Shown: positions 7,517-30,039, counted from the stretch's first letter. The stretch is DNA of 64,000 nt from an uncultured Candidatus Saccharibacteria bacterium (GCA_964627095.1 CAZVKH010000001.1:8451-72450); one strand, 5' to 3'. The notes: generated by a model not told the origin, from the letters alone. Numbers and translations: made by a program.

Positions 7517-7543
7517 CTCGAAGACCTCTCGTTTAGTTATGGA

Positions 7544-7726: not shown

Positions 7727-7799
7727 TCTTGTTGACCCTCCAAGAGTTATTATTTACAAGCATAATCATAGCAGGATTATGCTACTAAATAAAGCGTGA

Positions 7800-8234: not shown

Positions 8235-8723
8235 ATGATTTATATACAACACACATTCAAGATGTTTATGGGCAAAGTTTCGGCCTCTATTGTGGTGTTT
8301 TTGTTTGTTGCTGGGATGGTTCTTACGCCGGCTTCTGCTTTGGCAGCCACTCCCGACTATAGTTGCGGGGCTTACGGTGGCAACGACTATAACAGTAACT
8401 GTCCAACCGACCCTAGTACCCCTAGCTCAAGTAGCAGTTCCTCTAGCAGCTCGACTGGCAGTAGTTCTAGCGACGGAGCGGCGGCCGACACGCCGACAAC
8501 TTCGGATACTACAACTACAACCGACGACAGCACCGCTATCGATACAAACGACAAAAGTTCTTCTACCACCAAGACAGCTGCCGAAGAAGAAGCTGGTACG
8601 TCTAATAGCAGCCGCTGGCTTTTGTTCGGCTTCTCGCTCTTTCTGCTCCTGCTAGCTCTATGGCTGATCTTCTTCTTGCTCAAGCGCCGCAAGCGCCAGC
8701 AAGAAGACAAACCAATGTTCTAG
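8235..8723 (+). CDS. Secreted Ser/Thr-rich low-complexity surface protein with C-terminal TM anchor and basic tail
   Basis: Signal peptide (…VVFLFVAGMVLTPASALA), poly-Ser/Thr linker, C-terminal hydrophobic segment plus KRRKRQQ (cell-surface anchoring architecture without LPXTG). Confidence 0.5.
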   Translation: MIYIQHTFKMFMGKVSASIVVFLFVAGMVLTPASALAATPDYSCGAYGGNDYNSNCPTDPSTPSSSSSSSSSSTGSSSSDGAAADTPTTSDTTTTTDDSTAIDTNDKSSSTTKTAAEEEAGTSNSSRWLLFGFSLFLLLLALWLIFFLLKRRKRQQEDKPMF

Positions 8724-8992
8724 ACGGTCGGCTGGCCGGACGTGAGCTGAGGCTGTTCAACGATTCTATCTATGCCTAGGTCCGGCATCATGTACGATAG
8801 TTCGTCTCGTGCAGTCGGTGGTAGATCTGGGCTAACTTGGGCCACAACCGCTAGGCCATCGTCGCTACGGTCGACGACAACTCTTACAGCACTAGATATA
8901 GCAGGCATTAGATCCCAAAGATCACACTCAGCTGTAACACGGGCTTGCTGGAAGGCCTCATACTCTTGATTAGTGATTCTTCGTTTTGACAT
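8720..8992 (-). CDS. Hypothetical protein (90 aa), leaderless, downstream of a TCATGCTTGCA-type promoter
   Basis: ATG at 8992. -10 TAAGAT and -35 TTGCAT lie directly upstream. No known domain recognised. Confidence 0.4.
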   Translation of the reverse strand: MSKRRITNQEYEAFQQARVTAECDLWDLMPAISSAVRVVVDRSDDGLAVVAQVSPDLPPTARDELSYMMPDLGIDRIVEQPQLTSGQPTV

Positions 8993-9023
8993 ACCAAAAA
9001 TCTTACAGCTACTCTGTTAGATA

Positions 9024-9035
9024 TGCAAGCATGAG
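9024..9035 (-). promoter_or_regulatory. Extended -35 motif CTCATGCTTGCA (minus strand) of the promoter for the 8720..8992 gene
   Basis: A 12-mer shared with 9541..9552 and 51888..51899. -35 TTGCAT, 17 nt, -10 TAAGAT, then 7 nt to the ATG. Confidence 0.5.
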
Positions 9036-9061
9036 CGAAATATGTTTTAAGATGTCTGGGC

Positions 9062-9508
9062 TTAGTCGAGTGCTCGGGCTTGCTGGATCTGTTGCATGAG
9101 GTGACATTTGTCGCCTCCCTCCTCAAAAATTTCACACGCCACCGGGCGCTCTTCGTAAATTCCGCAGTGCTCCCAGCCGTCTTGATCGGTTTCAAGATAC
9201 TTGCAGTCATTCAGCAATACGTACCGACCAAGATTTGCCGCCAATGGTTCGGTTGGTCGCTCAGGGTCAACATAGTAAGTTTTCATACCTGTTTCGGGGT
9301 CCCATTCAAGACCACGCGGATAGGGTGCATCCGGGCGAGCCTTTGGCGATGGCAAGGGAACCGTCAGAAACTTGTTACCCGGTCGAGTCATAAGGGCGAC
9401 TTCTTGAAATGTCAGATCGAATATTTCGTTAGCCCGGCAGCAAGCCGCTTGACACTCATTGCAGTCGTCAACTGGTTCAGATGAAATTTGGATTGGAATT
9501 CTGGACAT
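9062..9508 (-). CDS. YkgJ/UPF0153-family putative Fe-S/zinc-chelating protein (CxxCxxCC)
   Basis: 148 aa, N-terminal CNECQAACC motif plus further Cys residues. Leaderless start behind a TCATGCTTGCA promoter. Confidence 0.55.
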   Translation of the reverse strand: MSRIPIQISSEPVDDCNECQAACCRANEIFDLTFQEVALMTRPGNKFLTVPLPSPKARPDAPYPRGLEWDPETGMKTYYVDPERPTEPLAANLGRYVLLNDCKYLETDQDGWEHCGIYEERPVACEIFEEGGDKCHLMQQIQQARALD

Positions 9509-9540
9509 ATTCTACGATTATTGAGCCATCTACGGTCGTT

Positions 9541-9552
9541 TGCAAGCATGAG
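9541..9552 (-). promoter_or_regulatory. Extended -35 motif CTCATGCTTGCA of the promoter for the 9062..9508 gene
   Basis: -35 TTGCAA, 17 nt, -10 AATAAT, then 8 nt to the ATG at 9508. Confidence 0.5.
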
Positions 9553-9572
9553 AGAATTGGAAGCGACTGCCT

Positions 9573-9690
9573 GGCGGCACATTTCGTCGCGGGCTCGGTG
9601 CCAGCACCTGCGCGCGCTCCTCATGAGCGCACCTTCGACTACTGTCTGCTGCGCAGCCAAGTCGAAGAACCGGCGTCTTGCTCACTGGCA
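9573..9690. other. tRNA-adjacent conserved structured element, copy C (divergent; candidate ncRNA/cis element)
   Basis: Shares GGC-GCACAT…GCTCGG-[hairpin]-CCTGCGC…TTCGA with copies A and B. The hairpin arms GGTGC/GCACC covary with GGAAT/ATTCC. It lies between the terminator of tRNA-Pro and the promoter of the YkgJ-like gene. Confidence 0.4.
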
Positions 9691-9692
9691 AA

Positions 9693-9728
9693 GAAAAAGA
9701 GCCATCCTTATGGATGACTCATTTTCTT
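9693..9728. terminator. Bidirectional rho-independent terminator (A-run, GAGCCATCC-TTAT-GGATGACTC, T-run) 3' of tRNA-Pro
   Basis: 9-bp stem with one mismatch, flanked by AAAGAAAAA and ATTTTCTTT. Confidence 0.6.
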
Positions 9729-9805
9729 TGGTCGGGGTGAAAGGACTCGAACCTTCGACCTCACGGTCCCAAACCGCGCGCGCTAGCCAACTGCGCCACA
9801 CCCCG
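9729..9805 (-). tRNA. tRNA-Pro (anticodon TGG)
   Basis: Acceptor CGGGGTG/CACCCCG, D arm GCGC-AGTTGGCTA-GCGC, anticodon stem CGCGG/CCGTG with loop TTTGGGA, T arm GAAGG-TTCGAGT-CCTTT, CCA encoded. Confidence 0.85.
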
Positions 9806-15823: not shown

Positions 15824-16348
15824 ATGTTGCAGTTGAGTAAAACATTGATGGATCGTCCTGTTATGAGTCTTCGTACCGGCGGCAGGGTAGCAACGGCAAC
15901 GGCGCCTATTATTAACCCTAATAACTTGAAAATAGAAGGTTGGTACTGCCAGGATCACTTTAGCAAGAATACCCTGGTGCTTTTAAGCCAGGATGTCCGT
16001 GACATAATTGGCCAAGGTTTGGTCATTAATGACCACGAAAACTTAAGCGAAGTAGAGGATTTGGTCAGGCTAAAAGACGTGCTGGACCTAAACTTTGAAC
16101 TCCTAGGCAAGCCAGTAGTAACTGTTAATAAGAAGCGCTACGGTAAGGTCAGTGACTTTGCGGTTGAAACAGAAACCTTTTACATCCAAAAAATTTACGT
16201 TAGCCAGTCGATTATGCGTAGCCTTAACGGCGGCAACTTAGGTGTAGATAGAAGTCAGATCGTTGAAATAACGCACCACAAAATTGTTATTCAAGATCCT
16301 CTTAAGCCCGTCAAAGCTTCGACTTCAACTGCTCCGGCCGTTGGCTAA
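15824..16348 (+). CDS. Hypothetical protein, tandem PRC-barrel-like domains
   Basis: The ORF-track start at 15803 overlaps a TATAAT box. ATG at 15824 is preferred. Sequence resembles YlmC/YmxH-type PRC barrels. Confidence 0.4.
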   Translation: MLQLSKTLMDRPVMSLRTGGRVATATAPIINPNNLKIEGWYCQDHFSKNTLVLLSQDVRDIIGQGLVINDHENLSEVEDLVRLKDVLDLNFELLGKPVVTVNKKRYGKVSDFAVETETFYIQKIYVSQSIMRSLNGGNLGVDRSQIVEITHHKIVIQDPLKPVKASTSTAPAVG

Positions 16349-16953
16349 TCTTCTACCGAATCATGTAGAGCGACTTTGATATCACCATAGTTGTAGCCCT
16401 GCCTTAATAGATAAGCGATAAGTTTTTGCGGATCTTGATAACGGCTCTGACTGCGTTTCTTTTCTATTACCTCTTTTAGAGCCGATGTTTCATCTCCCTC
16501 GTCTTCGGCCAAAGCGGCTTCGATGACCTCCTTATTAACATGCTTCTGCATAAGTTCCTGGCGTAGTCGACGCAGGGAAGTGGGCTTTAACAAGCGCCGA
16601 TTAGTAATCCAAGACTGGGCAAACTTAGCATCATCAATATAATCATATTCACTTAACTTGTTAAGTATATTATCGACCGTGGGGGAGTCATATTCTTTAC
16701 GCTTTAAATAATCTCTGACCTCCCACTCACTGCGTGGTCGCCTCGCAAGGTAATCCAGCGATCTCATAAATGCCTTGTCGAGCACGGCCGTCTGTTGCAG
16801 CTCTTCTAGCTCTTGCGTGTTGTAGTCTCGCCCAATCCTAATACCGGACTTCATTAACTCGGTTTCACTTAAACTGAATGAGTATTTGTCATCAACATAT
16901 ATTGAGTACCGACTTTTACGCTTTACCTGTTGCTTGATGTCAGTAATACGCAT
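16345..16953 (-). CDS. recX: Recombination regulator RecX
   Basis: Directly downstream of recA, 202 aa, helical repeat RecX-like sequence. Confidence 0.75.
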   Translation of the reverse strand: MRITDIKQQVKRKSRYSIYVDDKYSFSLSETELMKSGIRIGRDYNTQELEELQQTAVLDKAFMRSLDYLARRPRSEWEVRDYLKRKEYDSPTVDNILNKLSEYDYIDDAKFAQSWITNRRLLKPTSLRRLRQELMQKHVNKEVIEAALAEDEGDETSALKEVIEKKRSQSRYQDPQKLIAYLLRQGYNYGDIKVALHDSVED

Positions 16954-16971: not shown

Positions 16972-18003
16972 CTAGGCAGCCTTCTTGGCAGAGGCTTCAC
17001 GAACCTGGGCAGCTATCTTGTCTAATACTTTAGGGTTGGCTTCTAGATACTTCTTAGCAGCTTCGCGGCCTTGAGCTATTTTCTCGCCGTTATAGGCAAA
17101 CCACGCACCACTCTTTTCGACTATATTGTCTTCGACAGCCAGGTCAAGAGTATCGCCACTCACGCTGATACCTTGGTTGTACATAATGTCGAACTCAGCT
17201 TGACGGAAAGGTGGGGCAATTTTGTTTTTAACAACCTTGACGCGCACGCGCCCACCAACAATCTCTTCGCCCTGCTTAATCTGGCTGATGCGACGAATAT
17301 CCATACGAACGCTGGCGTAAAACTTGAGAGCGTTACCGCCCGTTGTTGTCTCTGGGTTGCCAAACATCACACCGATCTTCATGCGGATCTGGTTAATAAA
17401 TATGACCGTTACATTCGACTTGTTGATAACACTGGTTAGCTTACGCAGGGCCTGGCTCATTAATCGAGCCTGCAAGCCCATGTGTGAGTCACCCATGTCG
17501 CCCTCAATTTCAGCACGCGGCACAAGTGCGGCCACTGAGTCGATTACAATTAGGTCAACGGCATTACTACGCACGAGGGTTTCAACAATTTCGAGGGCTT
17601 GTTCACCACTATCTGGCTGTGAAAGCAAAAGATTAGCTGTATCGACACCGATGCGCTTGGCGTAGGCCGGATCAAGGGCATGCTCGGCATCGATGAATGC
17701 AGCCGTGCCACCAAGTTTTTGGACTTCGGCGATGGCATGCAAGGTCATGGTTGTCTTACCGCTTGACTCTGGACCATAAATTTCGACAACACGGCCTTTG
17801 GGAATACCACCACCAAGTGCTAAGTCTAACGACAGGCTACCAGAAGGGGTGCACTCCACGTGAGTAGCGTGGGCTTCACCCAACTTCATGATTGCACCTT
17901 TACCAAATTGTTTTTCGATTGTTTCGACAGCGAGGCCTAAGGCTTTGGATTTGCCTTGACTGGCTGTATTGTCGGGTTTTTCTGAATTAGCTTTAACGGC
18001 CAT
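16972..18003 (-). CDS. recA: Recombinase RecA
   Basis: Walker [11 protein letters not shown]1/L2 loop regions. ATG at 18003 is preceded by GGAGGT. The ORF-track start at 18015 includes the Shine-Dalgarno. Confidence 0.95.
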
Positions 18004-18181
18004 GACTACCTCCACTTATGTTAGTGGGTAGTATTATAGCTTCCGCCCATGTTACTGACAATGAGTCGTATTTGCCACCTCTGTTATAAATACTAACTTT
18101 TAATTAAGAGTTAATATTACTCGTCATGCCCAACAAGCATAACGAATATGCTACAATAACGCCTAGGAATACATGTGTTGA

Positions 18182-18685
18182 ATGACTAAGAAGAATCTTC
18201 GTACCGTTAGCAGCAATCAGGATGGGTTCACCGTCCCTGAACTGCTTTTGATGGTTCTTATAATTATAATCCTGTCTGGACTTGTTCTGACCAACTATCA
18301 GGCCCAACGCGCCAAGCAAAGAGACAGCCAGCGGGTTCAAGACATTAACTTGATCGACAACAAGCTCGAAACCTACTACAACGACAAAAACGCCTACCCA
18401 GCCACCTTTTCTGCCCAAGACTTGTTTAATGTTGATGAAGCGGTCTTAAAAGATCCCGATGGCAAGATGATCGTTTTTCACCCAGCGGTGGGTGACTCGG
18501 TGGCGGCTCAGGCTGTTACCAACCCGAACGAAAAAAGTGCTTCGAGCTACCTCTACATACCTTATCCAACTGGCTGTACCAATGCTGCCAATAATTGCAC
18601 CGGTTTTGTACTTAAAACTTTCGTTGAAAAGCCCACCAGCACAACTCCCAACCCATACACCAAGGTTGGCATTAATAACAACTAA
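18182..18685 (+). CDS. Type IV pilin / pseudopilin (class III signal peptide)
   Basis: Prepilin cleavage/methylation motif …DG|FTVPELLLMVLIIIILSGL…, 167 aa. Confidence 0.7.
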   Translation: MTKKNLRTVSSNQDGFTVPELLLMVLIIIILSGLVLTNYQAQRAKQRDSQRVQDINLIDNKLETYYNDKNAYPATFSAQDLFNVDEAVLKDPDGKMIVFHPAVGDSVAAQAVTNPNEKSASSYLYIPYPTGCTNAANNCTGFVLKTFVEKPTSTTPNPYTKVGINNN

Positions 18686-19266
18686 CGGCGACGGTTTCTA
18701 GAAGGATCGCTGTCTAGATATTTTTGACGGGCGTCTAATACTACTTTGCCGTAAAAGTTTGGTCGCGGGCAGTACTTAAAGTTAAAGTTTGCCTGCTCAC
18801 CGGCGGTTTCTACAATCAGATTGCCAAAACCAAAAATAGAGGCAAATATGCCCCGCTGCTTGGCGGTCACATCTTCTACGTTTGCTAGTGATAGTTCCGA
18901 GACTTTGCGATTAAATAGACCGTGCTGTAATACCTGGGTCAGATTCTTATTGCTTATGATAAGTTTGCTCTGCCTATAAATGTATGTGTAAAGCATTAGT
19001 ACCATCCAAACAGCGATTGCAATCAAGCCAATCACCACCGACAAAAATAGACGTAATTGTGAAAGCTGTTCGTTAGGGAACATAATCGGCGCCAGGAGCA
19101 TTAGCATAAATGAGCCCGCCACAAAACCAACTCCAACTTGGCAGTAAACTACAATAAGCCCGAATGAATGACGCTTAACTTCATAAAGTAAGGTTTCGCC
19201 TTCACTAATACCTTCTATAGTATTTTCGACGGTGTCTGGTGGCAGTGGGGTATCTGGATTCATCAC
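18682..19266 (-). CDS. Membrane protein with bacterial PH domain (bPH_2 / YdbS-like)
   Basis: Two TM helices followed by a PH-like domain, 194 aa. Confidence 0.55.
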   Translation of the reverse strand: MMNPDTPLPPDTVENTIEGISEGETLLYEVKRHSFGLIVVYCQVGVGFVAGSFMLMLLAPIMFPNEQLSQLRLFLSVVIGLIAIAVWMVLMLYTYIYRQSKLIISNKNLTQVLQHGLFNRKVSELSLANVEDVTAKQRGIFASIFGFGNLIVETAGEQANFNFKYCPRPNFYGKVVLDARQKYLDSDPSRNRRR

Positions 19267-19271
19267 TGCTA

Positions 19272-20303
19272 TTATAGCAAGATTTCTTGTTCTTCAGGAG
19301 TGTCCGGAGTTTTACCTAGGTGCTTATAGGCCTTGCGTGTAACCTTGCGGCCGCGCGGAGTACGCTCCAGTAGCCCAATCTGCATAAGATAAGGTTCGTA
19401 AAAGTCTTCGATAGTAGAACGCTCCTCGGCTGTAAGGGCAGCTAATGTTTCGACACCAACTGGGCCACCTTGATAGTTGTCGATTATCGCCATTAAAAGC
19501 ATGCGGTCGGCTGGGTCAAGCCCCAGATCATCAACTTCTAACAGCCCCAGAGCTTGGGTACTAATTTCGGCGTCGATGATGCCGTCGCCATTAATGTCGG
19601 CGTAGTCACGTACTCGCTTTAGTAAACGATTGGCGATGCGCGGCGTAAGCCGAGCGCGTTTGGCTAGATCTTGGGCGGCGGCCTTATCAATCTTTATGCC
19701 AATGATCTTGGCGGCCCGTTCAATAATCTGCTGGACTTCGTCTGGAGTGTAGAACTCTAAGCGGTGTATCATGCCAAAACGATCACGTAGGGGAGCGGCC
19801 AAGGCACCAGTTCGGGTGGTGGCGCCAATAATTGTAAACTTGGGCAAATCTAAGCGCAGGCTGCGGGCGGTTGGGCCCTTACCAAGCATGATGTCGAGTT
19901 TGAAGTCTTCCATGGCACTGTAAAGAACCTCTTCGACCGAACGGTTCAAGCGGTGGATTTCGTCGATGAACAGAATATCGCCGTCCTGCAGGTTGGTTAG
20001 TAGGCTAGCCAAATCACCGGCCCGCTCCACAGCCGGGCCACTGGTGACGCGAATGTTGGCTCCCATTTCGTTGGCAATAACAGTTGCCATGGTCGTTTTG
20101 CCCAGGCCTGGTGGACCGTACAACAGAATATGGTCGAGCGGCTCTCCACGTTTGGTGGCGGCCGCAATCGCCAATTGCAAATTCTGTTTTAAACGCTTCT
20201 GCCCAATATAGTTGGTGAAGTCATGGGGGCGGAGTGTAATCTCTAACTCGGCCTCAATTGGGTCTTCTTCATCCTTGGTACTTACAATTCGTTCAATCGC
20301 CAT
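19272..20303 (-). CDS. ruvB: Holliday junction branch migration ATPase RuvB
   Basis: Walker [10 protein letters not shown], Walker B DEIHRL, 343 aa. Confidence 0.95.
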
Positions 20304-20304
20304 A

Positions 20305-20886
20305 TTATTTTCCGGTTAAGGCTCGTTTAATGCGATCCTCAGTTGGGATGTCTTGCGGGATGCCAGCTAGGGCAGTGGCAGCATCGGGAGCAGTGTAACC
20401 CAAGGCCATCAAAGCCTCGACAGCTTCGTCCTGCACCAAACTTGCATCCGACTGTAATATACCCAAACTATCTAAATCAACGCCAGCCAAACCAACTTTA
20501 TCTTTTAGCTCAACGACAACTCGTTCGGCGACACGTTTTCCAACACCGTTAGCTTGCTGAATGAACTTGGTATCGCCACTTGCTAGTGCTCGCCTCACCT
20601 CACCCACTGTGCCAATACTTAACATGTTAAGTGCCATTCGTGGACCAATGCCATTGACTGAAAGGAGTAGTTCAAACAAATTTTTAGTTTCTAGGCTGCA
20701 GAAACCGTACAGGTCGTAACTGCTCTCTCTTATGTGTTCGTAGATGTAGAGCTTGGTCACCTGCTCTGGCGTCAGCTTTCCAAAGTCTTCAGCCGTTACT
20801 AGCAGCCCATAGCCAACCCCGGCGACGTTTAGAACAACGACGTCTTTCAGTTTTTCGGATACAGTCCCCTCTAACGTTGCAATCAT
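20305..20886 (-). CDS. ruvA: Holliday junction DNA helicase RuvA
   Basis: [12 protein letters not shown]…, HhH motifs. ATG at 20886 chosen because the longer ORF would overlap ruvC. Confidence 0.9.
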
Positions 20887-20908: not shown

Positions 20909-21382
20909 TTACCGTAAAGCGGTGCTACAACAGATGGCCGCTGCCAATGCATCGGCAGCATCGTCCGGTTTTGGTATTTCTTTTAGATTGAGTAGCATAC
21001 GCACCATCTCTTGAACCTGCTTTTTGTCGGCTTTGCCATAGCCAGTCAACGACTGTTTTATTTGCTGAGGCGTGAACTCGTGCAGTTCCAGGCTATGCTG
21101 CTTACCGCAGAGCAGAACTACGCCACGGGCCTGTGAAACACTCATTGCCGTTGTAACATTCTGGGCGAAGAAGAGCTTTTCTACCGACATAACTGTTGGT
21201 TGGGTGCTTTTGATGATCTCGTGCAGCTCGTCATAAATTGTACTTAGACGCTCGCTATCGGCCTGCTTAACTGGCGTTCGGATGACACCGGCGTCAACCA
21301 GCGAAAGCTTCCCTTGCTTACTGACTTCAACGACGCCGAAACCAAGAATACCGGTACCTGGGTCAATCCCTAAAATTCTCAT
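20909..21382 (-). CDS. ruvC: Crossover junction endodeoxyribonuclease RuvC
   Basis: MRILGIDPGTGILGFGVVE…, 157 aa. Confidence 0.9.
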   Translation of the reverse strand: MRILGIDPGTGILGFGVVEVSKQGKLSLVDAGVIRTPVKQADSERLSTIYDELHEIIKSTQPTVMSVEKLFFAQNVTTAMSVSQARGVVLLCGKQHSLELHEFTPQQIKQSLTGYGKADKKQVQEMVRMLLNLKEIPKPDDAADALAAAICCSTALR

Positions 21383-21401: not shown

Positions 21402-22928
21402 CTAGTTGGTTATTAGGCTTTTAATACGTTGCACCAGTCGGCTTATTTCTTGGCGGTATTCATACGCGCCGTAGCTAACGATGATTATCATGACAGCCCC
21501 GATGATTACTATGTGACCCTTGCGTGGAGCAACAGTTTTATCGCCCAGAACCTTACCTGTTGTCTTGGCCACAATTTTGCGGCAGCGGCCAGTAGTGGGG
21601 TTGCGCTCTTGGCCGGCCTCGCAGGCTTTTTGAGTGCTGGCAGTTTCGATTTTGCGACAACGATTGGTCGCTGGATTCTTTTCTTGCCCAACCGGGCAGG
21701 TAATGGCTGCTAAGACTGCTAGCTTGCGGCAACGGCCAGTTTCGGGATTACGTTCTTGATCAGCATTGCAAGCCACCAAAACAGCAGATTCTTCGTTAGA
21801 CTTGCAGCGTCCGGTGGCAGGGTTGCGGAACTTACCAGCTGGGCATGGTTCTGCCTCGCCTTGCTCGGTTTGCTGTGCTGATTCACTTACGAGTAAGTTT
21901 TCCAAAGCTGGCGTTGGCTGTTTGGTTAGCGCCCAGAATCCGTTTACCAAAGCCCAGGCTTCGTCATCGGATAGGGCTGGGTAATTAACTGATGTTGTTT
22001 CAGTTATAGTCTCGAGGGTTACCACACCGCCACTGTTACCCAACTGAAGAGCCGAGACTGAGTAGTAGACAGCCTTGTATTCGTGGGCCTGTATTGTGGT
22101 TTGTTCAGGAAAAATATACTCCTTGGTGGCCGTGCGAAGCTTGCAGCCATGTAGTGATTGAGTTTGGTCGGTTGGATTATATATTTCTATAAATTCGCCA
22201 AGTGTATCGTCGCCGGCTGGGTTGGGCAAAATTTCGTTAATCTGAATGCCCTGGCAAGTTGGCTGTGAACTCGTGGGTGGCGGCACCGAAGGTGGCAGAC
22301 TTGGTGGGGTTACGCTAACGCTATATATATTGCCACCTTGCGGTGTGGCCGGCTTATAATTGGCAACACCATCTGACTTGTTGTACAGACCATTGGTTGT
22401 TGGTCTTTGTAGCGTATAGCTAGGTCCCGCTACGGCCGACACCTTATCGCAGCCAGTAATAGTAGTCGCCGAGCCCCAAGCCACGCAGTCGACCATGGTC
22501 GTGCCGTTCATCAACCTAACATGTCCGCCAGACTTAGCTAGAAATCCAGAAGTTGATACATCACCAGCACCAAAGATACTATCTGGTGCAACCGGGTAAT
22601 ACCCGTCGTGCTCCCAGATTCCATGGCCATTACCGCTTATTTGTCCGGAAATTGTGTCGATAATTTGGGTGGCGGCAGCTGTGCCATTATGCGAAGCTGA
22701 CAGATATTCTAGTCGCCAACCGGTCATATTAACCGCTGCGCCCGTAGTATTTGTTAGCTCAACGAATTCCTGTCGTGGGTATTCTACCCCAGCGCTGTCG
22801 ATAAAGCCGGTCTGAACTTCGGTAATAAGAACTGATGGCTGGACGGCGCCAACTGGCGAAGCCATACACAGCTGTAAGACAACTAATGTAGTGGCGCCAA
22901 GGCTTAGTGCGGTTAGATATTTCTTCAT
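21402..22928 (-). CDS. Secreted protein with two lamin-tail domains, four tandem Cys-pair repeats and a C-terminal TM anchor
   Basis: Signal peptide MKKYLTALSLGATTLVVLQLCMASPVGA. LTD-like segments ITEVQTG…EFVELTN and QINEILPNPAGDDTLGEFIEIYNPTD. Four repeats C-x3-[QE][EK][RK]NPxT[GN]RC[RK][KS]. A TM helix follows. Confidence 0.65.
   Translation of the reverse strand: MKKYLTALSLGATTLVVLQLCMASPVGAVQPSVLITEVQTGFIDSAGVEYPRQEFVELTNTTGAAVNMTGWRLEYLSASHNGTAAATQIIDTISGQISGNGHGIWEHDGYYPVAPDSIFGAGDVSTSGFLAKSGGHVRLMNGTTMVDCVAWGSATTITGCDKVSAVAGPSYTLQRPTTNGLYNKSDGVANYKPATPQGGNIYSVSVTPPSLPPSVPPPTSSQPTCQGIQINEILPNPAGDDTLGEFIEIYNPTDQTQSLHGCKLRTATKEYIFPEQTTIQAHEYKAVYYSVSALQLGNSGGVVTLETITETTSVNYPALSDDEAWALVNGFWALTKQPTPALENLLVSESAQQTEQGEAEPCPAGKFRNPATGRCKSNEESAVLVACNADQERNPETGRCRKLAVLAAITCPVGQEKNPATNRCRKIETASTQKACEAGQERNPTTGRCRKIVAKTTGKVLGDKTVAPRKGHIVIIGAVMIIIVSYGAYEYRQEISRLVQRIKSLITN
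21576..21846 (-). repeat. Four tandem ~25-codon repeats encoding CxxGQERNPxTGRCRK modules inside the LTD protein gene
   Basis: CPAGKFRNPATGRCKS / CNADQERNPETGRCRK / CPVGQEKNPATNRCRK / CEAGQERNPTTGRCRK. DNA-level identity is moderate. Confidence 0.5.
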
Positions 22929-23045
22929 AGTGCAGCCATAGTAAAACGACCACAACAACAGCGTCAAAACTATCCAATTAACAGTTAATTAATAGTTAAT
23001 ATTACCCTATTGGACCTTAATTAAATCTAGGCGAATTATTAACTT

Positions 23046-23777
23046 TTAATTAGCTAGAAATTCTTCTGGAATATCAAAATTGACGTGCGTATTGCTAACG
23101 TCATCAATGCTATCAATGGCATCCATCAGTCGTAAAATTTTACCGGCGGTGGCTTCGTCTTCCACGGTAACGGTATTATTGGGAACATAGGTTAGTTCAG
23201 CTTCAGTAATTTCTAGGTCAGCCGCCTTAAGGGCATCACGAACCTTACCCAGTTCTTTGGCATCGGTGTAGATGACTGACTCGTTTTCTTCTTCCTGGAC
23301 ATCCTCAGCGCCAGCGTCGAGCGCAGTTAGCATTAACTCGTCTCCAACGCCATTAACCCGAATCATGCCTTTGTGATCAAACTGGAAGGCGACAGCGCCC
23401 TTTTCGGCAATACTGCCACCATGTTTACTAAAAGCCAGTTTTACTTCTGGATAAGTGCGGTTGATGTTATCGGTAGCAACCTCAACTAAAATGGCGACGC
23501 CACCTGGCCCGTAACCTTCGTAAAGTAATTCCTGAATCTGTTCGCCACCTAGTTTGCCGGAACCACGGTCAATCGAACGCTGAATATTGGCCACCGGCAT
23601 GTTTGATGCTTTGGCACGGTCAATTGCCAAGCGTAAGCTGAAGTTCATATCGGGGTCGGCACCAGCGCGGGCGGCCACTGCAATGGCATTACCAAGTTTA
23701 GTAAACAAAGCACCACGAGCGGTATCTTTGGCGCCCTTTTGACGTTTGATTGTTGACCACTTAGAATGACCTGACAT
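23046..23777 (-). CDS. yebC: YebC/PmpR-family DNA-binding regulator
   Basis: MSGHSKWSTIKRQKGAKDTARGALFTKL…, 243 aa. Confidence 0.9.
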   Translation of the reverse strand: MSGHSKWSTIKRQKGAKDTARGALFTKLGNAIAVAARAGADPDMNFSLRLAIDRAKASNMPVANIQRSIDRGSGKLGGEQIQELLYEGYGPGGVAILVEVATDNINRTYPEVKLAFSKHGGSIAEKGAVAFQFDHKGMIRVNGVGDELMLTALDAGAEDVQEEENESVIYTDAKELGKVRDALKAADLEITEAELTYVPNNTVTVEDEATAGKILRLMDAIDSIDDVSNTHVNFDIPEEFLAN

Positions 23778-23782
23778 ATCTG

Positions 23783-25207
23783 TTATTCTAGCACATTTTG
23801 GACGTTTCGGCGAACGGCAATTCGTTTGAGCAACATTACCACAATAACAATCGCACCATAAGCTATGGTCATACTATAGACATCTATGGAAAGTTCAGCG
23901 GCGGCATGCGGGAGCCGGCTAAATTGGGCCGAGATGTCGATCATGTAGGTGAGCAGGGTCTTGGCGGGCCAGGCCAAAAGCCCAGAAACCGGCAGCCACG
24001 ACAGAGGACCTAAACCGGCGATCAAGGTTAACAACATGGCTAGCGGCACCAATGGAACAACCAAGACGTTGGCAACAAGACCGATAATCGATACCCGGCC
24101 AAATATATACATGATTATAGGCACGGTCATAACTTGAGCTGACACGGTTTCGGTAACTAGGCTACCAAGCAGCTTGGGTGACTTACGCCGCAGCCCACTT
24201 ATAGCCGGGGCAATTACCAACACTCCAAAGAATGCCAGGAATGACAAGTACCAGCCAATGTCCGACCAAATATAGTATGGGTTCCAAGCAGCTGTAATGG
24301 CGGCAGCCAGAGCCAGTAGTAACACCGGCTTAAACTGACGACCATAATACCAAGCTAACAAACTTAGGCTGCTAACTAGTGCGGCTCGTATTATTGAAGC
24401 ACTTAGGCCAGTGAGCATTACAAACACCAGCATTAATGCGCTGGCTGCTACCACAATCTGAAACTTTGAGCCCTTCTGCAAAAGCTTGCGGACGGCCATG
24501 ATAATGATCGTTAGGTTATAGCCCGAAACAGCCACCAGGTGCGTTAAGCCGGTGACCGAAAGCTGGTCATTGACTTCTTTTGGGATGGTACTTCTCTGAC
24601 CCAATAATAAACCGGCTCCAAAAGATGCTTCGGGTTCGGGTATTGAAGACTGCAGGCCGGCAATAAACCGCCGCCGCACCACATCGAGCCGTGACTGATG
24701 GCGCTGCGTAACTTTAATGTTGGCAAAACTCATTCGAGCCTGGGCAGCACCGCGCGTGGGGCTGAGCTTACCAGAGACTTGTAGTTGATCACCGCGGTAG
24801 ACCATTGATTCACCGCGGCCCTCGACCTTGATCTTTCCAAGCAAAGCAACAGTTTCAGGCTGCCTAACAACAAGCTGGTTGGCATCAAAACTTAACATAC
24901 CTTTGTCGCTATATACGGCATCGGTTTCGGCCTGTGCCGTAACTACGACTGGCCTAGCAAACAATGACTTATAACGAGACAGCTGGTACATATAGGCAGT
25001 ACCCCTAAATAGCCCTAACTGGAATCCACAACACAATAGCAGCAAACAACTAAGCACATTCTGCCAACGATAAACTGCCGCCATGAAAACAAAACTTGCA
25101 GCCAGCAGCAAAGTTTGCCGATATTCAATTCGGCGGGCCGCCACCAAGCCAAGTAAGACAGCCAAGAAAAAGCCCACCAGTTGGGTGTTTTGTTTAAAGT
25201 AGTTCAC
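23783..25207 (-). CDS. comEC: DNA internalisation competence protein ComEC/Rec2 (competence domain only, no metallo-beta-lactamase domain)
   Basis: Polytopic; LSVTGLTHLVAVSGYNLTII competence-domain motif. Confidence 0.7.
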   Translation of the reverse strand: MNYFKQNTQLVGFFLAVLLGLVAARRIEYRQTLLLAASFVFMAAVYRWQNVLSCLLLLCCGFQLGLFRGTAYMYQLSRYKSLFARPVVVTAQAETDAVYSDKGMLSFDANQLVVRQPETVALLGKIKVEGRGESMVYRGDQLQVSGKLSPTRGAAQARMSFANIKVTQRHQSRLDVVRRRFIAGLQSSIPEPEASFGAGLLLGQRSTIPKEVNDQLSVTGLTHLVAVSGYNLTIIIMAVRKLLQKGSKFQIVVAASALMLVFVMLTGLSASIIRAALVSSLSLLAWYYGRQFKPVLLLALAAAITAAWNPYYIWSDIGWYLSFLAFFGVLVIAPAISGLRRKSPKLLGSLVTETVSAQVMTVPIIMYIFGRVSIIGLVANVLVVPLVPLAMLLTLIAGLGPLSWLPVSGLLAWPAKTLLTYMIDISAQFSRLPHAAAELSIDVYSMTIAYGAIVIVVMLLKRIAVRRNVQNVLE

Positions 25208-25241: not shown

Positions 25242-26750
25242 TTAACTTTCGCTGAAGACTTTTTGGACTAATTCAAGTTGCCTTTGGTTAGTCGGATCAA
25301 ACTTAGCCTTAAATACTAGGTCAAGCATCGCCGGGTCGTTTTTATACTTTTCCCAAAATGTGACAACTCGCTGCTTACCCTCTAAGTATGCCAAGTCTTT
25401 GTTAAATGTAAGTAGGTGATGCTCCCCGTCAGAAAGTCTATCATCAACGCTGGTTGGCGTGCCTCTAAATATTCGAACGCAGCCCGCGTAAGTGTTGTTT
25501 TGAGCGGTAGAAATTTGTTTTTCAGTTGGCTCTTCGCCGCTTTGAGCTTTTATCAACACTCGTGCCCGCCAAAGTGTTTCGAATACCTTGCGAAAGTCAT
25601 TTCCTTCGTAAGCTAAACCGTAGGCTGCATATCGCTCCAGATTCGGTGCATCCCAACTCGTATCCTCACCTGTTGTTGCTTTCTCGCAAGTCGAAGCAAA
25701 ACCTTCTTCGAAAGTCAGGTAGTCACTTACTTCGCCAGGTTCGGCAGCCGTGTATAGCCCCGTCCCAACCACCGGAATATCTGTCTCGATGCCACTCATG
25801 GCCCGGCCAGCATGAACTATGTATTCGTGCACTACTTTACTTAACATCTCTTTTGCAGAAGAAATAGGACCACGCTTGCCACCAATTACTACAGCCATCT
25901 GTTCTGTTTCCCAAGAAAGTGCAGTCGCCGATGGGTCGATAAGCACTTGGATTCCAGAACTATTATCAGGGTCACGCTGTTGATGAATAAGACTAAAGAT
26001 AGCGTACATATCATCGACGGTAAAATGCTGTTCTTCCGTCGGTCTTGGCTTAACATTTTCGTCCCAATACCGTAATATAGTCGGCTCAAGATCTGGGTTA
26101 TCGCTCAAGACTTTCTCATCCAGATAATCGAGTAGTTCTTGAGGTAGTGGCTTAAGTGGCTCGGCATCATTACGCTTAAGTGGAGATACGACGATAGATT
26201 TGCCTGCAACTTCTACCACAAAGCCATGTTCTAGCTCTTGCTTGAGTTGTTGCCCAACTCCAACCAACTCCTTGCCATCAATCTGACGCCAAATTTCACT
26301 TACTACGCCAGCGTACAAGTCTTGATCGGGTTTGCCGTACAGCTGTTCGTTCAGGTTTTGAACATAGCTAGCCCGGCGATCAAGTTCGTCTTCTGACATC
26401 GTAAAGTGGCCATCAATAAGTTCTTTGGCGCTTAGCAACCAATACATCTCGGCCATTCGATAAGCTGCGCTGTCCCAAATTGCCTCTTTGGCAGTCTGGT
26501 CGGGCTGCGCCTCGGCTAGTTTTAGAACCTCACCCAGAACAGATATGCCATTTCTTAGTTCGTTTTCATCTAAAACTGGGTAATCAAGGGTGGGGTTAAC
26601 AACATCGCCTGCGAGAAAATCATCTCTTTGTTGAGCCCGCTCATCTTTGTCGCCCGCCAAACGTTTATACGACTGAAATGCGATTTCAGGAGTATTGAGA
26701 GGATGGAGTTGTTCGCGTAGCGAGACTCCTTCAAGAAGTATCTCTGACAT
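25242..26750 (-). CDS. Hypothetical protein (503 aa; possible DUF1704-like), leaderless
   Basis: ATG at 26750 (MSEILLEG…) directly follows TTATAAT. The longer ORF-track N-terminus would run through the conserved element and the tRNA-Lys terminator. Confidence 0.5.
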   Translation of the reverse strand: MSEILLEGVSLREQLHPLNTPEIAFQSYKRLAGDKDERAQQRDDFLAGDVVNPTLDYPVLDENELRNGISVLGEVLKLAEAQPDQTAKEAIWDSAAYRMAEMYWLLSAKELIDGHFTMSEDELDRRASYVQNLNEQLYGKPDQDLYAGVVSEIWRQIDGKELVGVGQQLKQELEHGFVVEVAGKSIVVSPLKRNDAEPLKPLPQELLDYLDEKVLSDNPDLEPTILRYWDENVKPRPTEEQHFTVDDMYAIFSLIHQQRDPDNSSGIQVLIDPSATALSWETEQMAVVIGGKRGPISSAKEMLSKVVHEYIVHAGRAMSGIETDIPVVGTGLYTAAEPGEVSDYLTFEEGFASTCEKATTGEDTSWDAPNLERYAAYGLAYEGNDFRKVFETLWRARVLIKAQSGEEPTEKQISTAQNNTYAGCVRIFRGTPTSVDDRLSDGEHHLLTFNKDLAYLEGKQRVVTFWEKYKNDPAMLDLVFKAKFDPTNQRQLELVQKVFSES

Positions 26751-26792
26751 ATACATATTATAACATAATAGAATGAGTTTTACGATGCCACT

Positions 26793-26890
26793 GGGGCAAC
26801 GCACATCTACGGCCTTGCTCGGAATGCATTCCTGCGCATGGCCTTGATGACCGAACCCCGGCTGCGCCGTTTGGGTTCTCGGCGCGTGCT
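26793..26890. other. tRNA-adjacent conserved structured element, copy A (candidate ncRNA/cis element)
   Basis: About 75 nt nearly identical to 53732..53806. Nested helices CATC/GATG, GGCC/GGCC, GGAAT-GC-ATTCC. Lies between the tRNA-Lys terminator and the leaderless 25242..26750 gene. Confidence 0.5.
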
Positions 26891-26891
26891 C

Positions 26892-26928
26892 CATGAAAAA
26901 AGCCGAACACAAGGTTCGACTGTTTTCA
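26892..26928. terminator. Bidirectional terminator hairpin (CATGAAAAAAGCCGAAC-ACAAG-GTTCGACTGTTTTCATG) 3' of tRNA-Lys
   Basis: About 17-bp imperfect stem containing A/T tracts. Confidence 0.55.
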
Positions 26929-27005
26929 TGGAGGGCCCACTGGGACTCGAACCCAGGACACCCTGCTTAAAAGGCAGGTGCTCTAACCGGCTGAGCTATG
27001 GGCCC
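26929..27005 (-). tRNA. tRNA-Lys (anticodon TTT)
   Basis: Acceptor GGGCCCA/TGGGCCC, D arm GCTC-AGCCGGTTA-GAGC, anticodon stem CCTGC/GCAGG with loop CTTTTAA, T arm CTGGG-TTCGAGT-CCCAG, CCA encoded. Promoter TTGACT-17-TAATGT lies upstream. Confidence 0.9.
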
Positions 27006-27078
27006 ACATAGATCAAGAATTGCCGAATTAACTTCTTACATTATCCGTATTTTTGCCAAAAAGTCAATGTTCGGCGCT

Positions 27079-27573
27079 TTAGCGACGGCGGCGTTGACGG
27101 CGTCGGTGATGCCGTGGGTGAGCCATCCAAAAGCTGGCTAAGCTAACAAACACGCCGACTACCACCACAAATTCTTTGCTATTCATTAGCAGTGTCCAAC
27201 CACTTAGGCTGGTAATGGTGTCTTGTGGGCCGCTAGGCAGCAGCGGTACGGCTAAGATCACGCCAACAATACCCAGGGCAATGGCTGGCAGAACATTAAC
27301 GAAAGTTTTAGGACCAGACATCGACTTGGTGGTAAAAATAGTGCTCAGGACGGCTGGTAAGACCAGTAGAGCAAACTGAAAGTACTGATTAACAACGTCG
27401 GAGTTATTGCCAATTGCTGAGCCAACTAAGCCGGCTTCGTTACCAGCAAACTGCACTAATACAGCGCCGGCGCAAAGGCTTAAAAAGACCACGGCGGCGT
27501 TTGCTCGAAGCAATAAAACCACCAAGACTGGGGCAGCAATCGCTACCAACAGAGCAATATTTTGCATTATCAT
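27079..27573 (-). CDS. Hypothetical polytopic membrane protein with Arg-rich C-terminus
   Basis: 164 aa, 4-5 hydrophobic helices, …HPRHHRRRQRRRR tail. Confidence 0.45.
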   Translation of the reverse strand: MIMQNIALLVAIAAPVLVVLLLRANAAVVFLSLCAGAVLVQFAGNEAGLVGSAIGNNSDVVNQYFQFALLVLPAVLSTIFTTKSMSGPKTFVNVLPAIALGIVGVILAVPLLPSGPQDTITSLSGWTLLMNSKEFVVVVGVFVSLASFWMAHPRHHRRRQRRRR

Positions 27574-27606
27574 GCGCCCATCATAGCATGAGCGGGTTGG
27601 TTTTGC

Positions 27607-28512
27607 TTAGGCGCCGACGCGGTCGCGCTTGCCGCGCTTGCTCTTGGCATTTTGTTCGACGTAGTCGATAATCTTGCCGGCAATATTGCGGCCGGTCACT
27701 TTTTCAATAGCAAAGCCAGGGCTGGCGTTAACTTCTAGTACTAATGGCCCGCGCTCGGAACGCATCAAGTCGACACCAGATATTGGCAGACCCATGGCCT
27801 TGGCGGCCCGTACGGCTGTCTTCTTTTCTTCGTCGGTCAGCTTAACCACCGTACCTTCACCGCCCTGGTGTAGGTTTGAACGGAAGTCATCATCTAGGCT
27901 TTGGCGCTGCATACTAGCTACAACCTTGCCATTAACTACAAAGGCCCGGATGTCGGTACCGGCCGATTCGGCCACAAATTCCTGCACCAAAAAGTTCACG
28001 CCTTCTACATAGAAAGCTTGCATTACCGCCTCGGCAGCTTTGCGAGTTTCGGCTAGTACGACGCCCTTACCGTGAGTACCGCGGGCCACCTTAATAATTA
28101 GTGGTGCACCGCCGGCTTGTTCAATTAAGTCCTCTACCTGGGCAGTTTCGCGGGCAAATACAGTTTTAGGGATACCAACGCCAGAACGAGCTAGAATCTG
28201 AGCGGCGCGCAGTTTGTCGCGCGTGCGGTTGATCGCTAGCGAACTAGCGGTACTAAAAACGCCCTGCATCTCGAATTGGCGCACAATTGAAGTACCGTAC
28301 TTGGTTAAGTTAGAGGCAATGCGCGGGATAATAACGTCGATGTCGTTTATTTCTTCACCTTCGTAACGCACGACTGGGTTGCCTTGTTCTAGAGTTACAT
28401 AGCACTTGGCATAGTTAATAACGCGGACGTTGTGGCCACGTTCTTCGGCTTCGGCCTTGATTCGCTTGGTTGAAACGTTATCAGGGCCCTTCGACAAAAT
28501 AGCTATGTTCAT
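27607..28512 (-). CDS. rimK: RimK-family ATP-grasp alpha-L-glutamate ligase
   Basis: ATP-grasp fold motifs, 301 aa. Confidence 0.8.
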   Translation of the reverse strand: MNIAILSKGPDNVSTKRIKAEAEERGHNVRVINYAKCYVTLEQGNPVVRYEGEEINDIDVIIPRIASNLTKYGTSIVRQFEMQGVFSTASSLAINRTRDKLRAAQILARSGVGIPKTVFARETAQVEDLIEQAGGAPLIIKVARGTHGKGVVLAETRKAAEAVMQAFYVEGVNFLVQEFVAESAGTDIRAFVVNGKVVASMQRQSLDDDFRSNLHQGGEGTVVKLTDEEKKTAVRAAKAMGLPISGVDLMRSERGPLVLEVNASPGFAIEKVTGRNIAGKIIDYVEQNAKSKRGKRDRVGA

Positions 28513-28521
28513 ATTCCGACC

Positions 28522-28935
28522 TTACTTATTTATTCTGTTTACGTCAACTAGCAAGTTATTCTTGCGGATAAAACGACGACCAATTAACACCGGCCACTTC
28601 ATCTCGCTGCGATCGGCCAAGGTTAATAGGATGTCGTATTCATTACCATCAAGAATGATTTTAGTATCTATGGCGTAACGACGCTCTTCGTGACCATTCG
28701 AGCTAGTGACGCGTTTTATGCGATATTCGTTTACGGCAATAACCTTTTCGGGATGGTCAAAGGGCGAAAAGTAGAGCGTTTTGACACCGTCCACCACTTC
28801 TTTACGAATGTTGGTAGCATGAAGCGCACCGGTGTAGGCACCGGTATCAATTTTGGCGACAACCTTAGTAATACCAAACTCTGGGAAGCTGGCTTTTTCG
28901 AAGGCACCAATAACTTTTTGCGGTTCTTTAGTCAT
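28522..28935 (-). CDS. RimK-associated retropepsin-like putative protease (DUF785 / 'ATP-dependent zinc protease' family)
   Basis: 137 aa, KIDTGAYTGALH motif (aspartyl-protease-like DTGA). Conserved partner immediately upstream of rimK. Confidence 0.65.
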   Translation of the reverse strand: MTKEPQKVIGAFEKASFPEFGITKVVAKIDTGAYTGALHATNIRKEVVDGVKTLYFSPFDHPEKVIAVNEYRIKRVTSSNGHEERRYAIDTKIILDGNEYDILLTLADRSEMKWPVLIGRRFIRKNNLLVDVNRINK

Positions 28936-29166: not shown

Positions 29167-30039
29167 ATGAGCCAAGATCAACCTCAACAACCTCAGGAAG
29201 CTCCAGCTGAGTATGCCGACGTCTGGCACCAGCTCGACCCAGGCACGAAACTGCTTTTGTCGGACCCCGAAGGCTTAATACCAGCCGAGCAGCCACCTTA
29301 TAATCCCGATCCACCAGAAAGTCTCGGTTTAATCGGCAGCGTTGAAAAAGATGCTTATAAATATGCCTATACAGCAGCTCGCGGACTAGTTGAAAAGGAT
29401 GTCTTGAAAAAAGAAAACCTAATAACCACCCAAGAAAGAGACCAAGCCCAACTGGCCGCCAAAGAGGCTCGTTACGAAGCCACACATGACAAGATGACTG
29501 GGTTTTATAATAGAGCTGGTTTTGATATAGCCTTACAGCGCATGATAGACACCAACCCTGATGCCGATATTGGCATACTATATATTGATATTGATAACTT
29601 CAAATCTATAAATGATTCCGAAGGGCATGATGGAGGTGACGCCTTCCTTAAGGAGACCGTTGCTTGGTTGCGAGAAGTCAATGATCACCCCGAGCAAACC
29701 ATGGACAGCCAAATCGATCCGGCCGAACAAGATATGATCATGGCTAGAGTCGGTGGCGATGAGTTAGTCATAGCTATAAACTACAGCCGGGTCAACCGGC
29801 CCATAGACGAAAGCGTCGAAAAACAACTGCTAACTGATCGCGACCGCTTATACAAAGGTTTTAACCAGTTCATGGAAAAACAACATTACTACCTACTTAC
29901 CGAATTCAATGTTGGTGTCTCAATTGGCGTAGCCCACTGGCGCCTGGGCATTGACCCAGATAAACTTGTTATTCGTGGGGATAAAGACATGTACCGTCAA
30001 AAGGCTATTAATAGACGTGGCGGTGATCGGCGTCGTTAG
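29167..30039 (+). CDS. Stand-alone GGDEF-domain diguanylate cyclase (GGDEL variant) with Pro/Gln-rich N-terminus
   Basis: …GFYNRAGFD…ILYIDIDNFKSINDSEGHDGGD…RVGGDELVI… (GGDEF-family fold; active-site GGDEL). Confidence 0.8.
   Translation: MSQDQPQQPQEAPAEYADVWHQLDPGTKLLLSDPEGLIPAEQPPYNPDPPESLGLIGSVEKDAYKYAYTAARGLVEKDVLKKENLITTQERDQAQLAAKEARYEATHDKMTGFYNRAGFDIALQRMIDTNPDADIGILYIDIDNFKSINDSEGHDGGDAFLKETVAWLREVNDHPEQTMDSQIDPAEQDMIMARVGGDELVIAINYSRVNRPIDESVEKQLLTDRDRLYKGFNQFMEKQHYYLLTEFNVGVSIGVAHWRLGIDPDKLVIRGDKDMYRQKAINRRGGDRRR

Follow-up and report, generated by a model that had tools for sequence, protein, structure and literature searches.

What does a membrane-anchored surface protein do when its gene stands among genes for DNA uptake and recombination? 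The question is raised by a gene for a lamin tail domain (LTD) protein at 21402..22928, minus strand, in a 64,000-nucleotide stretch of DNA from an uncultured Candidatus Saccharibacteria bacterium (GCA_964627095.1 CAZVKH010000001.1:8451-72450; hereafter the window). Here the gene order is comEC-yebC-[LTD]-ruvC-ruvA-ruvB, all on the same strand, with a pilin gene and recA-recX nearby. Overall, our analysis describes the product as a type I membrane-anchored surface protein consisting of two LTD heads, a flexible stalk of four hairpins, one transmembrane (TM) segment and a short tail, and we hold this architecture, together with the family assignment, with high confidence. As to function, we tentatively favor a part in handling DNA beside ComEC, in which polyanions would more likely be bound by the basic stalk than by the LTDs, and we give this somewhat less than an even chance.

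Domain architecture and the hairpin array

The open reading frame (ORF) runs over 21402..22967 (minus strand) and would encode 521 aa if begun at a TTG, whereas an ATG at 22928 yields a product of 508 aa. We preferred the ATG because homologue alignments begin at the Met that it encodes, because a database protein of 508 aa (P0001) is 100% identical to the window protein, and because the TTG lies within a promoter-like pair. The TTG start at 22967 was rejected, as it coincides with the first base of the promoter-like -35; the site itself, in the spacer between yebC and the LTD gene (22938..22967, minus strand; TTGACG-18-TACTAT, 9/12 matches), is a consensus match only. An earlier note on this DNA had described a 508-aa secreted protein, and the product from the ATG has this length and a hydrophobic N-terminal signal sequence. 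The range that the note gave for the feature, 21402-25207, needs a small correction: it spans three genes (LTD, yebC and comEC) and not one.

From its N-terminus, and always on the minus strand, the protein begins with a signal peptide (aa 1-28, MKKYLTALSLGATTLVVLQLCMASPVGA then VQ; 22845..22928), recognized by its hydrophobicity and with a putative cleavage site; the AlphaFold model has a helix here and its first strand from aa 33. LTD 1 (aa ~30-200; 22329..22841) is acidic and is defined by Pfam, a beta-sandwich in the model and charge. A linker rich in Pro, Ser and Thr (aa 201-224, PPSLPPSVPPPTSSQP; 22257..22328) separates it from the second LTD; the linker has low predicted confidence (pLDDT) at 214-218 and is variable across the family, with PPP found in 13/112 members. 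LTD 2 (aa 225-345; 21894..22256), likewise acidic, is delimited by Pfam, model, conservation and charge, and its Cys225 and Cys262 are close to invariant in the family alignment. The Pfam LTD model (PF00932) matches the protein in two stretches (E 1.6e-23, 83.6 bits against a gathering cutoff of 34.3), which confirms the two lamin-tail-domain-like segments of the earlier note. The halves also match when scanned singly (E 3.7e-8 for LTD 1 and 2.1e-14 for LTD 2), and 28/28 sampled relatives match the same model.

The four hairpin units (21573..21848) are followed by a TM helix at aa 471-490 (21459..21518), supported by hydropathy and by a model helix over the same residues with pLDDT 86-94, and by a basic cytoplasmic tail with a net charge of +3 (aa 491-508 plus stop; 21402..21458). 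The C-terminal TM anchor proposed earlier is therefore present, as a hydrophobic segment at aa ~471-490 before the basic tail. A juxtamembrane Y-E-Y-R (aa 489-492) straddles the boundary between helix and tail; R492 is invariant across the family, and Y486 and E490 are conserved in at least 90% of it. This conservation hints at a cytoplasmic or membrane partner. Viewed as the longer motif YGAYEYR (aa 486-492; window 21459-21470), with Y486, E490 and R492 nearly invariant, it is odd for a simple anchor. We considered the TM helix plus YEYR as a sorting signal common to several proteins and rejected it, as YEYR ends no other ORF in the window. LPXTG, GlyGly-CTERM and PEP-CTERM signals are absent before the TM helix, where aa 453-470 (GKVLGDKTVAPRKG) were inspected; YEYR comes after the helix.

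The AlphaFold model, built with 112 relatives in the alignment, has a mean pLDDT of 86. It folds the two LTDs into beta-sandwiches (pLDDT >90) and every repeat unit into a two-stranded beta-hairpin (pLDDT 73-86 in the full protein), and it places a second helix after the C-terminal TM helix. When the whole model was searched against the PDB with Foldseek, the Ig-folds of lamin A/C, B1 and B2 came out on top (3gef, 1ifr and 3jt0; target TM-score 0.66-0.71, probability 1.0). The array modelled alone again gave beta-hairpins, with pLDDT 70 and a predicted TM-score (pTM) of 0.21. The hairpins are defined and their mutual arrangement is not, so that the model suggests a string of beads and not a rigid rod. 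A Foldseek search with the repeat-only model found no significant structural neighbor, the best being megalin/LDLR-type repeats at E 0.037. The charge is unevenly distributed: net -6 for LTD 1, -10 for LTD 2, +8 for the repeat stalk and +3 for the tail, against family medians of -8, -10 and +9 for LTD 1, LTD 2 and the stalk.

The stalk units are CPAGKFRNPATGRC, CNADQERNPETGRC, CPVGQEKNPATNRC and CEAGQERNPTTGRC; their first Cys residues are at aa 362, 387, 411 and 436, with C-x12-C spacing in each. All four are present exactly as the earlier note had quoted them. Each of the 120 best homologues has 2-7 units (120/120), most commonly four, with a period of 25-26 aa and linkers of 11-12 residues between units, and the array is therefore no chance feature of the window protein. 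The family consensus of the unit is L-K-P-C-x-x-G-Q-E-R-N-P-x-T-N-R-C-R-K, in which R is conserved at 94%, N at 88%, T at 96%, R at 96% and R/K at 92%; the net charge per unit is +2.2. Within a unit, the conserved residues are those enclosed by its two Cys, and differences in length and sequence fall in the linkers, which is why we presume one intra-unit disulfide in each. In nucleotide sequence, the four units diverge at synonymous positions, and Tandem Repeats Finder (TRF) found no DNA tandem repeat in the gene; for both reasons, the repeats are taken to be old and maintained by selection on the protein.

Regarding the identity of the unit, the earlier note had not recognized it as a named family, and this stands in part. 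The Pfam model PF25314 (TNF receptor-like; TNFR_nem) matches the repeat region of the window protein with 16.5 bits, below its cutoff of 27, and the match covers profile positions 18-33 of 34 only, i.e., half the domain. At E<=0.01, the model is matched by 17/28 family members, some relatives exceed the threshold, and a synthetic four-fold consensus of the unit reaches 37 bits, above the same cutoff. Additionally, the DPAM domain parse of the orthologue SEML1_0775 labels its repeat region 'TNF receptor-like' (Wang et al. 2023, PMC10633639). Judged by these matches, the most fitting description of the repeat is half of a TNFR-like module that here forms a unit of its own, the window protein itself falling outside PF25314. 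The stalk is a module without a curated bacterial family. The A1 module of TNF receptors has one disulfide and the form C-x2-G-x-Y/F...C, to which we take the opening of the first unit, C-x-x-G-x-[YF], to be similar.

Other candidate identities were tried and rejected. The viral 2-cysteine adaptor 2C_adapt (PF08793) scored 16.8 bits against 22 over 7 residues only (RNPATGR), and matches to CBM_14 and ANATO were sub-threshold or covered few residues. The sole PDB sequence match to the unit, actinohivin (RNxQTGRC, E 0.02), was taken as a chance motif in an unrelated beta-trefoil lectin. A profile of two units (48 aa) returned 129 candidates, among them family members cut down to their C-terminal part and some small basic proteins; the family itself was not recovered, and this profile is uninformative on other architectures. 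Among its matches, P0121, P0123, P0124 and P0127 are small, very basic proteins lacking a signal peptide and carrying 1-3 CxxGxxRNPxTxRC motifs. These four do not match the viral 2-cysteine adaptor model, and a link to that motif is unsupported.

The family and its gene order

A full-length search found >2229 relatives of the LTD protein. Nearly all of the best 120 are full length (480-660 aa), most with 93-100% query coverage, and those with names are called "lamin tail domain-containing protein" and come from Saccharimonadales, Saccharibacteria or Parcubacteria. The window gene is thus an ordinary orthologue of a huge family of the Saccharibacteria and the candidate phyla radiation (CPR), catalogued but undescribed. 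We also searched 1.84 billion representatives, clustered at 50% identity, with a profile of the array, which matched 1995 of them at E<=1e-3 and, at the stricter limit of E<=1e-30, 546. Nearly all of these roughly 2000 clusters share the architecture of the window protein. Among the best 150 representatives, 142 were newly returned; 125 of these match the family's LTD1 profile, 130 its LTD2 profile, and 119/142 its TM/tail profile. Five proteins (P0197, P0207, P0266, P0269 and P0280) carry the cassette of hairpin repeats, TM helix and aromatic-[EQ]-aromatic-R under other heads, which match neither the family LTD profiles nor Pfam LTD at E<=0.001. Their sequences suggest that the cassette could serve as a reusable stalk and anchor module. 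One eukaryote-like protein in the same search has 22 units.

To place the gene in its context, we compared 23 distinct loci: the window, 21 fetched loci (L-numbers below) and that of Ca. Southlakia epibionticum, whose gene order was taken from Table S1 of Wang et al. 2023 (PMC10633639). These loci are related, and the counts are not of independent events. In 19/23 (the window, 17 fetched loci and S. epibionticum), comEC lies at most three genes upstream of the LTD gene. The window order comEC-yebC-LTD-ruvC is found in 15/23 (the window, L001-L008, L014, L016, L021-L023 and S. epibionticum). In a further 3/23 (L010, L011/L012 and L017), comEC directly precedes the LTD gene on one strand, and yebC and ruvCAB are inverted or absent; in one (L013, the same place as L009), comEC is three genes upstream. 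The comEC and LTD genes overlap by 4 nt in L011, which points to translational coupling. By these comparisons, the gene cluster is real and old, and its comEC-LTD pair has outlasted rearrangement.

A second gene accompanies the rearranged loci. Directly upstream of comEC in L010, L011/L012, L013 and L017 is a gene for a secreted, signal-anchored DUF1524/GmrSD_C nuclease of the His-Me finger type (L011:5645-6394; L012:1296-2045; L013:3087-3800; L017:4075-4416; L010:~7617-8369), and it is 5' of comEC in every lineage in which yebC does not separate comEC from the LTD gene. By its domain content, this nuclease could supply the strand-degrading activity that CPR ComEC lacks. A tblastn search of the window for a DUF1524 gene was negative, and the one that S. 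epibionticum possesses (SEML1_0519) is away from this cluster.

The other recurrent neighbor is a gene for a class A penicillin-binding protein (PBP), which lies between ruvC and ruvA in S. epibionticum (SEML1_0773), L021 (8397-10817) and L022 (8369-10819). In L015, where neither ruv nor comEC is near, a class A PBP gene (7481-9763) overlaps the LTD gene convergently. This recurrence points in the direction of the cell wall. In L018 and L020, mur genes are found near the LTD gene.

Published genetics and possible functions

An orthologue of the window gene has been subjected to transposon sequencing (Tn-seq). SEML1_0775 of Ca. Southlakia epibionticum ML1 appears in Tables S1 and S2 of Wang et al. 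(Cell 2023; PMC10633639) under the name 'lamin tail domain-containing protein', with the flag of a core family enriched in Patescibacteria; the paper does not take up its function. It resembles the window protein in its neighbors (RuvC 0774, LTD 0775, YebC 0776, ComEC 0777; PMC10633639) and in having two Pfam LTDs followed by the TNF receptor-like region, but it is 630 aa long, with an N-terminal extension of ~115 aa, and its locus, unlike the window, has the class A PBP gene between ruvC and ruvA. In the Tn-seq data (PMC10633639), SEML1_0775 is called NE/ES/ES, essential in co-culture, with insertion counts that drop through 30, 6 and 1 and read counts through 450, 104 and 13. SEML1_0777 (ComEC) is called NE/NE/NE, with normalised reads of ~12,000 at T0, T1 and T2, and SEML1_0776 (YebC) is also NE/NE/NE (normalised reads 1810, 1424 and 1008). 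SEML1_0774 (RuvC) and SEML1_0773 (the class A PBP, a transglycosylase) are both NE/GD/ES, with normalised reads of 200, 1321 and 674 for the former and 425, 12 and 0.9 for the latter (PMC10633639).

The RuvC and PBP genes lie downstream of SEML1_0775, with ruvC between the LTD and PBP genes, and insertions in ruvC were far less depleted than those in the LTD or PBP gene. Simple polarity is therefore no ready explanation for why LTD mutants are lost, with the reservation that ruvC offers 2-7 insertion sites only. The same study found that S. epibionticum transforms naturally through ComEC and that deletion of comEC abolishes transformation and leaves growth unaffected (PMC10633639). It named ComEC, DprA and ComFC as conserved com components of CPR (PMC10633639). 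ComEA is absent from its text, and ComEA and K02237 are absent from its S. epibionticum annotation tables.

Under the DNA-handling reading that we tentatively favor, the LTD protein would sit in the cell-wall zone beside the ComEC port and handle extracellular DNA, in a ComEA-like capture or hand-off. The basic hairpin stalk would be the likelier polyanion-binding part, with the acidic LTD heads serving, as they would in extracellular nucleases that bear LTDs, as a distal module for binding or spacing. Counting for this reading are the adjacency of comEC and the LTD gene, their 4-nt overlap, the DUF1524 gene upstream, the basic stalk, a ComEC without its nuclease domain, the scarcity of ComEA in CPR, natural transformation of S. 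epibionticum although ComEA is absent from its annotation tables, the occurrence of LTDs in DNA enzymes and the slower DNA degradation in vitro by ExeM deprived of its LTD (PMC6085458). ComEA is annotated in 31% of CPR genomes, for which the authors suggested an alternative DNA-binding mechanism (Méheust et al. 2019, PMC6744442). Prokaryotic LTDs are mostly joined to membrane-associated phosphoesterases (PMC6085458), and haloarchaeal Hvo_1477, which acts in extracellular DNA metabolism, and the metallo-beta-lactamase (MBL) 'ComA' carry LTDs (PMC5118699). With the nuclease ExeM (PMC6085458), these examples bear out the earlier statement that LTDs occur in extracellular nucleases. Since the orthologue is needed in co-culture and comEC is not, any DNA role must be wider than transformation (e.g., acquisition of extracellular DNA or nucleotides) or must be accompanied by a second role. 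The proposal of a surface DNA receptor for natural transformation, made in the earlier note, keeps its plausibility as a hypothesis, but in view of the Tn-seq data transformation cannot be the whole story.

Several observations weigh against DNA handling next to ComEC. SEML1_0775 is called essential while comEC is dispensable; therefore, it is needed for something that ComEC is not, and its main fitness role is not ComEC-mediated uptake. Synteny, by which the earlier note proposed to check its idea, holds in the 19/23 loci with comEC near and breaks both ways. LTD-ruvC-ruvA-ruvB is kept with neither comEC nor yebC in L019 and L020 (2/23), and neither comEC nor ruv is near the LTD gene in L015 and L018 (2/23). 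The LTD-ruvC pair also survives rearrangements, so that comEC cannot be picked out as the partner from synteny alone. With respect to the protein, LTDs that are acidic across the family would not be expected of a simple electrostatic DNA binder, and neither helix-hairpin-helix (HhH) nor OB (oligonucleotide/oligosaccharide-binding) DNA-binding domains were detected by Pfam and NCBIfam. The stalk and anchor cassette under other heads would fit a generic module better than a DNA-specific one. Moreover, removal of the LTD from ExeM slows DNA degradation in vitro and leaves it almost normal in vivo, so that this LTD is dispensable for DNA degradation in vivo, and its role was called unresolved (PMC6085458).

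Many of these observations would be accommodated if the protein were a host-contact or envelope protein with no role in DNA handling, its position between comEC and ruvC being the inherited order of a small genome. We regard this alternative as a serious one, about as likely as the favored reading. The Ig-like LTD heads, on a putatively disulfide-stabilized stalk, would bind a ligand on the host surface or on the cell's own wall for epibiotic growth. Such growth requires multiple adhesins (Wang et al. 2023, PMC10633639), a layout of stalk-borne heads and a TM anchor is typical of adhesins, and the same cassette bears other heads in P0197, P0207, P0266, P0269 and P0280. An orthologue that is core, Patescibacteria-enriched and called essential in co-culture, when comEC is not (PMC10633639), would be expected of such a protein. 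The decay of synteny in both directions, the class A PBP gene nearby in S. epibionticum, L021, L022 and L015, the mur genes in L018 and L020, and acidic LTDs that argue against DNA binding by the heads all point the same way. However, inertia alone hardly explains why comEC and the LTD gene, overlapping by 4 nt and preceded by a secreted nuclease gene, stay adjacent in lineages in which yebC and ruvCAB were displaced. LTDs in other prokaryotes are, besides, found mostly on nucleic-acid phosphoesterases (PMC6085458, PMC5118699), and part of the Tn-seq depletion could reflect polarity onto the PBP gene that follows, which leaves the essentiality of the LTD protein itself putative.

Returning to DNA handling, we also considered a bolder form of it, in which the family would be an alternative DNA-binding component that replaces ComEA in CPR. 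The ComEC-MBL fusion is essentially absent from these bacteria (Méheust et al. 2019, PMC6744442). The conserved, basic stalk, its hairpins locked by putative disulfides, would grip dsDNA in the wall zone and pass it to an MBL-less ComEC, a separate secreted DUF1524 nuclease would degrade the strand, and the capture would also feed nucleotide scavenging, which would explain why the LTD protein is needed for growth though ComEC is not. We consider this complete scheme unlikely.

Least probable, in our judgment, is that the protein is a ComEC-independent, passive accessory of secreted nucleases such as DUF1524, capturing DNA at the surface for scavenging, with the products imported as nucleosides or phosphate: this would reconcile an essential orthologue with a dispensable comEC, suits CPR bacteria that lack nucleotide synthesis (PMC6744442) and agrees with the LTD-nuclease association in ExeM (PMC6085458) and Hvo_1477 (PMC5118699) and with the operon-like unit that the DUF1524 gene shares in four loci, but the LTD protein has no nuclease domain, its likeness to ExeM is limited to the N-terminal LTD of the latter (16 bits against 1300), the DUF1524 gene is not adjacent in the window or in S. 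epibionticum, and there is no direct evidence for DNA binding by any bacterial LTD.

These readings matter for how CPR/Patescibacteria bind and take up DNA, as most of them have no annotated ComEA and a ComEC without a nuclease domain (PMC6744442). The LTD family is a concrete candidate here because it is core and enriched, surface-exposed and adjacent to comEC in most sampled genomes, and because its orthologue is needed for growth. Should it prove to be a host-contact or envelope protein, it would still be among the few conserved, essential epibiont surface proteins with a confident domain model. S. epibionticum is the one genetically tractable species, and it is there that the orthologue is needed for growth.

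Other genes of the window and comparison with known systems

The placement of the LTD gene between ruvC and yebC/comEC, as first described, was confirmed by Pfam for all three neighbors. The comEC gene (23783..25207, minus strand) encodes 474 aa with DUF4131 (OB) and Competence domains as the only matches in Pfam and NCBIfam, and an MBL domain is absent by the same models. The gene of the yebC/TACO1 family is at 23046..23777 (minus strand; PF01709 and PF20772). On the other side, ruvC (20909..21382, minus strand; Pfam RuvC E 9.4e-52) starts 19 nt 3' of the LTD gene, and no terminator-like site was found between the two on the minus strand. Further along the minus strand are ruvA (20305-20886), ruvB (19272-20303), recA (16972-18015) and recX (16345-16953). 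Their labels come from ORF translations and from related loci: ruvA and ruvB were placed by tblastn at matching positions, recA and recX by conserved position, and the counterparts of all four in related loci match Pfam RuvA, RuvB, RecA and RecX, respectively. The type IV pilin-like gene (18182..18685, plus strand) has a prepilin N-terminus (DG/FTVPE) and sub-threshold NCBIfam GspG/ComGC matches; its counterparts in L016, L019 and L020 match Pfam N_methyl. The nearby recA-recX of the earlier note is thus supported by translation, position and the Pfam matches of counterparts, and its pilin by the prepilin N-terminus, sub-threshold matches and the counterparts in L016, L019 and L020.

Several further genes were observed. 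A membrane protein with a bPH_2 (bacterial PH) domain follows ruvB (18682-19266, minus strand), a position kept in most related loci. Upstream of comEC is a conserved block on the minus strand (25242-28935), which contains a weakly MATCAP/QEGLA-like putative carboxypeptidase found by Pfam scan (25242-26753), a small multi-TM protein (27079-27573), an apparent ATP-grasp ligase of the RimK type (27607-28512) and a RimB-like gene (28522-28935), the last two labelled from Pfam marks in related loci. The block recurs next to the cluster in L001, L002, L005, L007, L011 and L021, and its RimK part in L023; on these labels, its products might form a ligase/peptidase pair that glutamylates C-termini. 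At 29167-30039 (plus strand), a GGDEL motif (RVGGDELVI) suggests, by motif reading alone, a GGDEF-type diguanylate cyclase-like protein. YebC-family proteins are tied to polyproline translation, and we considered whether yebC is linked to the polyproline of the LTD linker (PPSLPPSVPPP); as PPP occurs in 13/112 relatives only, this is probably coincidence.

Among known systems, ComEA is the membrane-anchored dsDNA receptor of competent bacteria. The LTD protein is like it in having a single-pass anchor that leaves most of the chain outside the membrane, and a gene that adjoins comEC. In contrast to ComEA, which is anchored at its N-terminus, the anchor is C-terminal; there is no HhH domain, the two proteins are not homologous, and DNA binding by the LTD protein is hypothetical. 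HhH and ComEA models gave no match in Pfam or NCBIfam at E<=0.1, nor did the separate parts of the protein at E<=10. The second comparison is with ExeM/Xds of Shewanella and Vibrio, Hvo_1477 and the MBL 'ComA', which share with the LTD protein a secreted or envelope-associated location and an N-terminal LTD. These proteins carry EEP, thermonuclease or MBL domains together with OB folds, whereas the LTD protein has none. The ExeM/Xds model NF033680 matches it with 16.1 bits against a cutoff of 1300, over model positions 8-128 (the LTD) only, which places it outside that family. Finally, the hairpin units differ from PF25314 in corresponding to half the domain only, in their linkers of 11-12 residues and in the beads-on-string model, but they resemble the cysteine-rich modules of TNF receptors in the putative one-disulfide hairpin, in the C-x-x-G-x-[YF/E] start and in forming a tandem extracellular stalk.

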